Part shown: piece by piece, positions 50,752-53,330 of the stretch
Layout of the letters: the number at the start of each line of letters is the position of its first letter
How positions within the stretch are numbered: the stretch's first letter is position 1
Program-made: the position numbers and the translations under genes
The notes under the pieces: generated by a model
The model's database searches: none
What the model was told of the DNA's origin: nothing
What the model saw: the letters and a program-made list of their open reading frames with translations, nothing else
DNA from: a virus
DNA: 64,000 nucleotides
IMG/VR virus record: IMGVR_UViG_3300031555_001876
Strand: one strand, 5' to 3'

Positions 50752-52056
50752 ATGATTAAACCTTCTATGTCATATCACGATTTTTTAGGATTAATTTATA
50801 ATCAAGAAAATAATGGACGTTCTGTAAAAGATTTTACTTTTCAAGTAACTGAAGATTGCAATCTATGTTGTACTTACTGTTATTAGATTAATAAAACTCC
50901 TAATAGAATGACCTTTGATATAGCAAAATAGTATATTGATTATCTTTTTGAAAATAAAGATAATCCAGATTTTTTTTATAGTAAGAAAACCACTCAAGGA
51001 TTTATTATTAATTTTATTGGTGGAGAACCTTTTTTAGAAATTGATTTAGTAGACTAGATTATTGAATATTTTGAAAAGAAACTCATTGAAACTAATGAAG
51101 AAGAATGGATGCTAAATCACGCTTATAATTTTTCTACTAATGGAACTTTATATTTTACTCCAAAAGTATAGAAATTTTTATAGAAATATAATGGTATAGT
51201 TAATGTTGGTGTAACTATTGATGGAAATAAAGAATTACACGATTCTTGCAGATTATTTCCAGATGGAAGTGGTAGTTATGATATTGCAGTGCGCGCCGCA
51301 CTAAATGAAAAGGCGAGAGGCAATGAAGGCACTAAAATTACAATATCTCCTAATAATATTGATTATATCTTTGATGGCATTACAAATTTATTAAAATTGG
51401 GTTTTAAACAGATTAATGCTAATTGCGTTTTCGAAGATGTTTGGACAGTTGAAAGTGCTAAACGTTTATTTGATGAATTAAAAAGAATTAGTGATTGGAT
51501 TTATGAAAATAAACTATATAATAAAATATATTTAAGTATTTTATATCCCGATAATTTTACTCCTTTAGAAGAACATCAATTAGATAGAGGTTGGTGTGGC
51601 GCTAGTTCAGGAATGAGTTCTCTTGACTATAAAGGTGACTTATATCCTTGTATTCGCTTTATGAAATCTTCTTTGGGTGAAAATTTAAAACCTTTGGCTA
51701 TCGGAGATATAAATAATGGTTTTTTATCTAAACCTGAACATATTGAAAATTATGATAATATAAAGAAATCATATATTATTAAAAATGCAAATCCTAGTAA
51801 ATGTTTAGAATGTTCTATTGCTAATGGATGCGGTTGGTGTGCTGGATGTGAATATCAATTAAGTGAAGGATTTGCTCAACGAAAAACTACTACTTGTGAT
51901 ACTCATAAAATGCAAGCATTAGCATCTAAATATTTATGTAAAATTTGTAATGATAAAGAAAGTTTTGATAATATTAAATTAGAATATAATATGTATAATC
52001 ATTTAATTGATGAAAATGATTTTAATAAGATTAATATATGGAAGGAGGAGGAATAA
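50752..52056 (+). CDS. Radical SAM enzyme with C-terminal SPASM-like Cys cluster (anSME/peptide-maturase family), 434 aa, 5 in-frame TAG.
   Basis: ATG 50752 after AAAAAGGAG. CNLCCTYCY-TAG is a CxxxCxxC radical-SAM motif with TAG directly after it. TAG at 50883, 50928, 51054, 51168, 51180. ORF-track 51289..52056 is its 3' part, carrying CLECSIANGCGWCAGCEY and CDTHK. Confidence 0.6.
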
Positions 52057-53330
52057 TGGGTAAAATTGTAGATAATACTTCACAATGGACTCCTGGCGCT
52101 AGTTCTTCTAACAATAGTTGCGGAGATAATTGTTCTTTAAGTTGTTTTGAAAGTATTAATAAATAGAATAAAAGTGAAGGAGAAAAATATACAGAGGCTG
52201 AAATAAAAAATAATGGTTATACTGGACCTCAACATAAAGAAGAAATAAAACATTTACTAGGCACTGAATTCGTTGATGAAAATGGATATTGGACAGAAAA
52301 AGCAGATGCAGAAACAAGACATAATTTAAGAGCAGAAAATAGAGACTATTATTTAGTTGGAAATTATAGTTGTGGAGATGGATGTCAAAATGGATGTGCT
52401 GCTTGTACCGATCAATGTGGAAATAGTTGTCAAGTAAATAGTGGAAATACTTGTGGCTGCAGTAATAGTGGATGTACTGGTGGATGTTCTGGTAACTGCA
52501 CCGGTAGTTGTTCTGGTAGTTGTGATAGCAGTTGTAGTGGTGGCTGTCAAGGCAGTTGTAAAACATCTTGCGATGTAGGATGTTCTTCTCAAGAACAATT
52601 AGATAATATAACTGAATTAGATAGAATTGTTCGAGCCCCTAATATTCAAAATATCTTCAAATTTATTATATACGAAGCAGAAAAACGCAGAAATAAAAAA
52701 ATTCCTACTTCTTATAAAACTACAATTAACAATTTAAAAGGTTGGACACAAGACCAAGAAGATAGTCTTATGTTATTATATTATAATATACCTCGTATAT
52801 TTGAAAGAACTTTTAAAAATATTCTTGAACAACCTTTAAGCAATATACAATCTGGCTCTTTAAATCCTAATGATAATTTTGCTCCCTATTTCCCTGAAAT
52901 AGATGAAATACAAACATTTAGAATGACCCGAAGTAACAATCCAAGTTATAATGATACTTGGCTGCAATGGTATAGAGGTCCTGGTGGCAATTTAGACACT
53001 AGACCTGGTTTCGGCAGTGATTTTTATTTACCACCACTAGGGAGTTGGTTATTAGGCGCTTTATTTGGTACTGGTGAAGAATATCTTGAAAACTTAAATA
53101 AGCATCATCCAAGTGGCACAGATAATCCTTATTACCCTAATGATTCAAGTGCAGTAATTGAAAAAGTAGAAGAAGAAGAACCACCAGAAGAACCTCCAGT
53201 AGAAGAAGAACCCGGTATTGACAATTCTGAAGGATTTAAATACTATACTGATAGATTCTCTGCACAAGAATGGGTAGATAAAGCAATGGCTTTATATAAT
53301 GAAATAATTCCTCATTATGATGCAAGATAA
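52056..53330 (+). CDS. Cys-rich protein (more than 20 Cys in C-x3-C repeats within 75 residues) with Pro/Glu-rich C-terminal tail, 424 aa, 1 in-frame TAG.
   Basis: ATG 52056 overlaps the rSAM stop (TAATG). Hand translation is open to ORF-track 52770..53330 with a single TAG at 52164. Repeat CGDGCQNGCAACTDQCGNSCQVNSGNTCGCSNSGCTGGCSGNCTGSCSGSCDSSCSGGCQGSCKTSCDVGC. Confidence 0.55.

Follow-up and report, generated by a model that had tools for sequence, protein, structure and literature searches.

Positions 50481-54113 of a 64,000-nucleotide stretch of gut-phage DNA (IMG/VR record IMGVR_UViG_3300031555_001876), the whole of which is referred to here as the window, probably encode a phage version of the CXXX-repeat radical S-adenosylmethionine (rSAM) maturation system, whose product would be protein-sized and probably cross-linked. 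In the proposed cassette, the gene for a small alpha-hairpin protein would be followed by those for an rSAM/SPASM enzyme (gene A), its coupled Cys-repeat substrate (gene B), a 152-amino-acid (aa) protein, and a second alpha-hairpin protein. We know of no account of the chemistry or the biology of the CXXX-repeat rSAM system, nor was any found. The first-pass annotation of this DNA had singled out genes A and B and stated that the pair has no described phage precedent. This holds in that the full-text literature searched yielded no description of the pair in phages, but the partners are already catalogued (TIGR04115, TIGR04114, TIGR04117, TIGR04118, PF27846, and PHROGs 1802 and 6085) and are present in the phage SPN3US.

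The enzyme and its Cys-repeat partner

Gene A (50752-52056, plus strand) encodes a protein of 434 aa and gene B (52056-53330, plus strand) one of 424 aa. The TAA stop codon of gene A (52054-52056) and the ATG of gene B (52056-52058) share one base in the sequence TAATG (52054-52058), and a strong Shine-Dalgarno sequence, AGGAGG, lies 4-9 nucleotides (nt) upstream of that ATG; as judged from this layout, the two genes are translationally coupled. Five TAG codons are in frame in gene A (codons 45, 60, 102, 140, and 144) and one in gene B (codon 37). The coordinates, the overlap, and the TAG counts of the first-pass annotation all agree with the sequence.

By its motifs and family matches, the product of gene A is a member of the radical SAM superfamily with a SPASM domain, for which the binding of auxiliary clusters is predicted. 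Among the NCBIfam models it matches TIGR04115 ("radical SAM peptide maturase, CXXX-repeat target family") with 354.1 bits, only marginally passing the cut-off of 350, and the match spans residues 26-394 of the protein and positions 2-358 of the 359 in the model. The second-best family is PapB, whose 189.2 bits stay below the cut-off of 340 (NF047865). CcpM, the SCIFF maturase (TIGR03974; 99.5 bits, cut-off 425), QhpD (94.6 bits, cut-off 453), and other Cys-peptide maturases rank after PapB, all of them far under their own cut-offs. Nearly all of the top 25 matches are rSAM/SPASM peptide or protein maturases, and the few of another kind (the heme d1 enzyme NirJ1, a generic rSAM/SPASM subfamily, and a pseudo-SAM family) are low-ranked. 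The protein also matches PHROG 1802 (rSAM domain protein) with an E-value of 4.6e-54 and, in Pfam, Fer4_12 with a score of 27.0 (cut-off 22), while Radical_SAM (27.6) falls just below its cut-off of 29.5. This hidden Markov model search bears out the first-pass proposal of a peptide- or protein-modifying rSAM/SPASM maturase. Homology to a housekeeping enzyme such as QueE, named there as the outcome that would speak against the proposal, is rejected, as the QueE-like PHROG 2076 reaches just E 0.03 and 14.8 bits, against a TIGR04115 match above the cut-off.

The CX3CX2C motif of gene A is formed by C36, C40, and C43 and is invariant in 28 homologs. The C-terminal Cys cluster comprises C366 together with C282, C300, C351, C354, C360, C363, and C382, the latter group being likewise invariant in the 28 homologs and lying within the region aligned to the SPASM domain of CteB. 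CteB (5WGG) is the best match in the PDB and the closest solved structure (E 3.5e-21), and both the rSAM core and the SPASM Cys align with it. The alignment begins at CteB residue 95; unlike CteB, which carries an N-terminal RRE domain (residues 1 to ~90), gene A has none.

CteB and QhpD are rSAM/SPASM makers of Cys thioether cross-links. In the QhpD/QhpC system, which concerns the gamma-subunit of quinohemoprotein amine dehydrogenase, the thioethers are found in a protein that stays within a larger assembly. QhpD is therefore a precedent for a cross-linked protein, although its match to gene A is far from its cut-off and its substrate and context are unrelated. Membership of the SCIFF/CteB family is rejected for gene A on its score, on the missing RRE domain, and on its target of 424 aa as opposed to a precursor of ~45 aa with six Cys. 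The PapB/PapA system (freyrasin, a ranthipeptide) is like that of the window in its rSAM/SPASM enzyme, the second-best family match of gene A. PapB forms six consecutive thioethers, one for each CXXX-spaced motif, joining the Cys sulfur to the C-beta of Asp in CXXXD (PMC10739248). However, PapA is a short peptide with a carboxylate acceptor in CXXXD/E, a motif that is missing from gene B, where the residue at i+4 is a Cys; with a score of 189.2 against 340 bits, gene A is not placed among the PapB-type ranthipeptide enzymes.

The protein encoded by gene B contains 21 Cys, 18 of them in residues 106-176, and the other three (C22, C26, and C30) form an N-terminal mini-cluster. The C-x3-C repeats described at first pass are thus present, but the core of more than 20 Cys is not, as this number is reached by the protein overall and not by the core. 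Successive core Cys are spaced by exactly four residues in 13 of 17 pairs, a value reached by none of 100,000 shuffles of residues 100-180. There are 15 CxxxC motifs in gene B and three at most in every other open reading frame (ORF) of the 64-kb window. The X positions are rich in Ser, Thr, and Gly, with Gly favoured at +2, and no acidic position is conserved in the repeats. Only four homolog clusters of gene B are found among 5.8 billion clusters; across these four the core Cys are all invariant while the X positions vary, which points to selection on the repeats.

The layout of the protein consists of the C22/C26/C30 cluster, a variable region, the CXXX core (106-176), a helical follower, a variable acidic and Pro-rich insert, and a C-terminal helix. 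Both the follower (IVRAPNI..F.F..YEAE.RR ... LYYNIPRIFE ... QSGSL) and the C-terminal helix (SAQEWVDKA..LYNE) are conserved. The acidic, Pro-rich stretch EEEEPPEEPPVEEEPG had been taken for the tail of the protein; the stretch exists, but it ends ~36 residues before the C-terminus. A profile of the post-repeat region has 13 matches only among 1.84 billion representatives, one of which is a C-terminal fragment, and the follower sits 3' of CXXX repeats wherever the N-terminal part of the match exists.

As a whole, gene B has no match in Pfam, none in NCBIfam at E<=1, and none among GenBank phages in DNA and protein searches, nor did searches of Pfam, NCBIfam, PHROG, and GenBank phages relate it to any known structural family. 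The 18-residue repeat model TIGR04114 (cut-off 20 bits) scores 13.6 bits on residues 100-185 and 22.7 bits (E 9e-5) on residues 135-178 alone, and two homologs of gene B (P0003 and P0004) have weak precomputed matches to PF27846 ("tSAM_targ_Cxxx_rpt"). The window is like the system catalogued around TIGR04115 (targets TIGR04114, TIGR04117, TIGR04118, and PF27846) in having an enzyme above the cut-off and an adjoining protein with a Cys at every fourth residue, of whose core one fragment passes the TIGR04114 cut-off. It is unlike that system in its 424-aa target with central repeats and a follower, which as an entire protein is unmatched by the target models, and in the addition of an alpha-hairpin protein and the 152-aa protein (p152), which match no NCBIfam model.

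The whole cassette is embedded in a recoded genome. TAG is a sense codon in the window (GC content 33.5%) and the sole interruption of long ORFs on both strands. The reassignment is confirmed by a suppressor tRNA with the anticodon CTA, detected by ARAGORN at 18826-18900 (plus strand), which would be required to decode TAG in genes A and B and in the small-protein gene. It belongs to a cluster of five tRNAs (17795-19349), the others being Thr-TGT, Ser-TGA, Gly-TCC, and Lys-TTT. TAG codons 45, 102, and 140 of gene A align with Gln in 27/27, 20/27, and 25/27 homologs, respectively, which supports the reading of TAG as Gln, some homologs possibly having been translated under the same assumption. 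Throughout the close relatives, the rSAM gene contains 3-9 TAG codons and the target gene 1-4, and the Band_7 gene 0-1; a late expression of the cassette is plausible from this content.

Conservation of the pairing and further cassette members

The pairing was followed in the best 80 of at least 519 IMG/VR contigs that carry a related rSAM gene in one pattern scan. At 90% rSAM identity these 80 viral loci group into 27 clusters, and at 70% into 20; a partner was defined as a same-strand ORF with at least six CxxxC motifs within a few kb of the rSAM gene. Such a partner is present in 79 of the 80 loci, mostly close beside the rSAM gene, and in all 20 clusters at 70% identity; the sole exception is flanked upstream by just 834 nt. 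Of 80 reference-genome loci that contain a related rSAM gene, 76 have a partner as well, and these loci come mostly from Clostridia, Oscillospiraceae, and Lachnospiraceae, together with multi-copy sets in Margulisbacteria/Termititenax. The rSAM family counts 3,172 clusters at E<=1e-3, a CxxxC-repeat ORF also adjoins the rSAM gene in fecal phage contigs, and every contig with a gene B homolog has an rSAM gene directly 5' of it. The loss of the Cys-rich gene where the rSAM gene is retained, which the first-pass annotation had named as a reason to abandon its proposal, is not what the relatives display. Because the pairing holds so widely in viral and genome loci alike, gene B is very likely to encode the substrate of the gene A enzyme.

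This conservation also bears on two other explanations. According to the first, the adjacency would be incidental: the rSAM protein, an auxiliary metabolic or housekeeping enzyme, would have a host molecule or a nucleic acid as its substrate and nothing to do with the Cys-rich protein. The neighbours in the window are indeed auxiliary (phosphatase-, kinase-, Band_7-, and PhoH/PIN-like, from the translations by eye and from Pfam in related loci). Nevertheless, the two genes co-occur in 20/20 viral clusters and 76/80 genome loci whatever the surrounding genes, they are translationally coupled, and the enzyme exceeds the TIGR04115 cut-off while the QueE-like PHROG stays at E 0.03, all of which makes an accidental neighbourhood very improbable.

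The second explanation takes the repeats as a metal- or Fe-S-binding module, either metallothionein-like or akin to the metal-ion stacks of trimeric fibres, with the rSAM enzyme acting otherwise or at few positions. Densely placed Cys, spaced by 3 or 4 residues and separated by small X residues, would suit such a module, metal-ligand repeats are established in T4-type fibres, and one relative (L010) has a signal of the twin-arginine translocation (TAT) type, SRREFFK, typical of proteins exported with a bound cofactor. Yet a covalent modification is implied by the almost invariable presence of an rSAM/SPASM enzyme of the Cys-thioether clade beside the repeats, an enzyme that free-thiol metal binding would not require, and a pure metal-binding role is considered unlikely.

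The loci themselves differ in several respects. In L010 (MT837480.1, positions 2219-2746), which is possibly bacterial, the CXXX-repeat protein beside the rSAM gene begins with the TAT-like signal SRREFFKNAAKSVLPILG, and this suggests the export of a folded or cofactor-bearing product. The 27.9-kb contig CAKQQY010000024.1, binned in a Clostridia metagenome-assembled genome, holds two cassettes of the window type (L098 and L147) ~8.5 kb apart, with rSAM enzymes 44% and 47% identical to that of the window. Margulisbacteria and Candidatus Termititenax (L163-L176) have many rSAM copies per genome, 31-34% identical to the window enzyme; each copy is preceded by a protein of ~450-670 aa with ~55-120 Cys and a different N-terminal domain, and the small alpha-hairpin protein is absent from these loci. 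These copies may represent a non-phage use of the system. The rSAM protein of Phass-1, a phage of the code-15 clade, is 25% identical to that of the window and has no CXXX or small-protein neighbour, and is assigned to a different rSAM/SPASM subfamily.

Beyond the gene pair of the first-pass annotation, an alpha-hairpin gene and the gene for p152 are members of the cassette, as read from their conserved positions. The first is a divergent member of a small-protein family and lies directly 5' of the rSAM gene (50481-50735, plus strand; 84 aa, one TAG). Hmmsearch finds this ORF kept in that place in all loci of the window type, and hhalign relates it to the common small-protein family with a probability of 92.8% (E 4e-7, 72 columns). 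A second member (53823-54113, plus strand; 96 aa, hmmsearch E 1.4e-19) closes the cassette, and a third paralog (46213-46500, plus strand; 95 aa, hmmsearch E 5.7e-24) lies 4.3 kb 5' of the rSAM gene, its product being 25% identical to that of the second. The family, with proteins of ~90-110 aa, is found in every one of the 80 viral loci and in 59 of the 80 genome loci, and in 65/80 viral loci the end of the alpha-hairpin gene lies at -16 to +125 nt relative to the start of the rSAM gene. An AlphaFold2 (AF2) model of the 96-aa member, with a pLDDT of 90, consists of a strand, two helices (10-36 and 44-75), and a beta-hairpin. The family has no match in NCBIfam or among GenBank phages, and BFVD returns uncharacterised phage proteins only. 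An RRE/PqqD-like or other known fold was considered for the small protein and rejected, as Foldseek against the PDB retrieved only generic alpha-hairpins of the MexA/AcrA type, with E>0.1.

The p152 protein (53384-53842, plus strand; 152 aa) has a Cys-containing N-terminal part and a coiled-coil-like C-terminal part. Jackhmmer places its gene directly 3' of the CXXX gene in every locus of the window type and in none of the other type, and no informative family match was obtained for it, NCBIfam models included.

Target architectures, genomic context, and the proposed product

Two architectures are found among the targets, which measure ~130-670 aa and contain as many as 145 Cys. The type of the window is rare and combines an N-terminal Cys cluster, the repeats, and a helical follower; it occurs in huge-phage contigs between Band_7-like and PhoH/PIN genes. 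The common type starts with an N-terminal domain of ~110 aa (F..LK.RIK.E..RR.Y.GS...Y....YDF); the repeats come next, holding at most 105 Cys in viral and 145 in genome loci, and in some cases an extra C-terminal domain is added. The common N-terminal domain has no match among GenBank phages, and neither the C-terminal domain of the L052 protein nor the N-terminal domain of the L029 protein has a sequence match in the PDB. Homology of the gene B follower with the common N-terminal domain was rejected, since hhalign gives a probability of 2% (E 0.024) and aligns only a short F..F/L..E..RR helix.

In several lineages, the common type lies among tail genes. One group of ~60-kb phages has the genes for tape measure, Dit, minor tail protein, virion structural protein, CXXX protein, small protein, and rSAM enzyme, in this order. 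In nine other distinct loci, the upstream neighbour matches PHROG families of tail, baseplate, or tail-fibre proteins in five cases, and several of the proteins encoded upstream of the cassettes end in a fibre-type motif, LWIDT..G..KY.NG..W. Phage_tail_C and Big_2 genes come after the cassette in L015, and in SPN3US its neighbours encode a virion structural protein and a tail assembly chaperone. This positional evidence suggests that many CXXX proteins belong to the tail or its fibres, a conclusion that is not automatically transferable to gene B. That gene B itself encodes a structural or virion protein is possible, but held with less than even confidence.

SPN3US-like jumbo phages carry a more distant form. 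Like the window, they have rSAM genes (gp163/gp164, 26% identity) beside CXXX proteins, gp166 and its paralogs (PHROG 1802/PHROG 6085). Unlike in the window, the targets are short (~130 aa, with the repeats placed after an N-terminal domain), no alpha-hairpin protein is detected, and a second rSAM gene is present instead. These genes carry no functional annotation. The SPN3US locus (L009, NC_027402.1) contains three tandem CXXX-repeat ORFs (positions 1085-1486, 1497-1901, and 1902-2123 of the locus) 5' of two rSAM genes. The first of them (130 aa, PHROG 6085 with E 7.5e-41) is unannotated in RefSeq, and the annotated start of the second (gp100) lies 73 nt 3' of the likely one.

The conserved non-repeat domains that flank the repeats could also be seen as leader and follower of a very long precursor of a ribosomally synthesised and post-translationally modified peptide (RiPP), from which the core would be excised, leaving the cell at lysis as a peptide with a bacteriocin-like or signalling role. 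The enzyme falls in families annotated as RiPP maturases, and NCBIfam names the related target family TIGR04118 "rSAM-modified Cys-rich RiPP". On the other hand, no protease or peptidase, exporter, or leader-cleavage motif was seen in the window cassette or in the relatives' loci examined, the cores of 70 to >400 residues and up to 145 Cys are far above the known RiPP size, and many lineages have the gene in a tail module. A peptide product of this kind is accordingly regarded as improbable.

In the mechanism proposed here, the product of gene B would instead remain a protein. The SAM cluster of the enzyme would abstract hydrogen from the repeat region of gene B, and the SPASM auxiliary clusters would engage the repeat cysteines; successive intramolecular thioether cross-links derived from Cys would be formed along residues ~106-176. 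The substrate would be recognised through the small alpha-hairpin protein and/or the conserved helical region after the repeats, a route that seems probable because the enzyme lacks an RRE domain. Instead of an excised peptide, the outcome would be a rigid, protease-resistant cross-linked segment within a larger protein, most plausibly fibre-like or virion-associated and made once the TAG suppressor is available. For the thioether chemistry on gene B, which is argued from analogy with the related maturases, the chances appear about even, and the acceptor atom is not predictable, since the residue at i+4 is a Cys and the X residues are mostly Ser, Thr, or Gly.

Several observations weigh against a cross-linked virion protein made in this way. 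To our knowledge, no member of TIGR04115 has been biochemically characterised, and the family has been defined by comparative genomics only. The repeats of gene B lack the Asp/Glu acceptor of the PapA type, and the small protein has neither an RRE-like fold nor an informative structural neighbour in the PDB or BFVD. AF2 gave no usable model for residues 38-424 of gene B (pLDDT 37, from an alignment of five sequences). Furthermore, the architecture of the window target differs from that of the tail-module type, with flanking domains for which no homology can be demonstrated, and cassettes of the window type lie outside the tail module, among auxiliary genes (Band_7 5' and PhoH/PIN 3').

As a wider and more tentative generalisation, phages with an rSAM enzyme and an alpha-hairpin partner may install thioether ladders in segments of their own fibre or virion proteins in which every fourth residue is a Cys. 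If true, viral structural proteins cross-linked by an enzyme would form a class not recognised before, carried, by the present sample, by at least hundreds of IMG/VR phage contigs, among gut phages and Clostridia-associated likely prophage loci, with a distant form in SPN3US-like jumbo phages. What appears to be new here is the scale of phage carriage, the protein-sized targets, the follower architecture, the alpha-hairpin and p152 partners, and the tail-module context in relatives. With at least 519 IMG/VR contigs in one scan, the system is plentiful in phages; it would act on protein-sized targets with extra partners, and it often sits where tail-fibre genes do. Should the targets be cross-linked virion proteins, they would bring a new post-translational chemistry into virus assembly and could explain how gut phages infecting anaerobes stabilise their fibres, and a processive, leader-independent cross-linking enzyme would be of biotechnological interest. 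The system is experimentally tractable, as cultured carriers exist (SPN3US and Erwinia jumbo phages).

Fibre-like and auxiliary genes elsewhere in the window

The fibre region of the window shares modules with cassette-linked fibre regions elsewhere, as indicated by a shared C-terminal motif and by PHROG 1589. A 266-aa protein (14039-14839) ends in LLWIDTSTGNGILKYHNGSAWTAISAIWS, a motif shared with fibre or structural proteins encoded just 5' of CXXX cassettes in other phages. A Gly-rich protein of 687 aa (15648-17711) matches PHROG 1589, as does the gene immediately 5' of the CXXX gene in L037.

Between the Band_7 gene and the cassette, the window encodes a 163-aa coiled-coil protein and a 349-aa beta-helix-like protein rich in Gly, Asn, and Ile (48895-50451), which by eye look fibre-like. 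Both genes are absent from this place in L001, L004, and L011 and look like an insertion; the beta-helix-like protein (49402-50451) has no match in PHROG and no sequence match in the PDB.

A 281-aa ORF at 33278-34123, with 12 Cys and a CxxxCxxC motif but without a sequence match in the PDB, may encode a second protein of the radical SAM type. Further downstream (41537-44621), inspection by eye reveals an NAD+ salvage-like trio, consisting of a nicotinamide phosphoribosyltransferase-like protein of 589 aa, a macro/NADAR-like protein of 152 aa, and an NAD synthetase-like protein of 284 aa. Metallophosphatase- and kinase-like genes come after the trio, and related loci have the Pfam domains NADAR, AAA_33, and Metallophos_2 at syntenic positions. 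On the other side of the cassette, 2.4 kb 3' of it, a gene pair (55705-56837) is flanked by the PhoH/PIN gene and gyrB. Its first gene is endolysin-like (PHROG 9589 and 21357, E 1e-29), and the second encodes a small protein with hydrophobic, membrane-spanning-like segments by eye, a possible holin.

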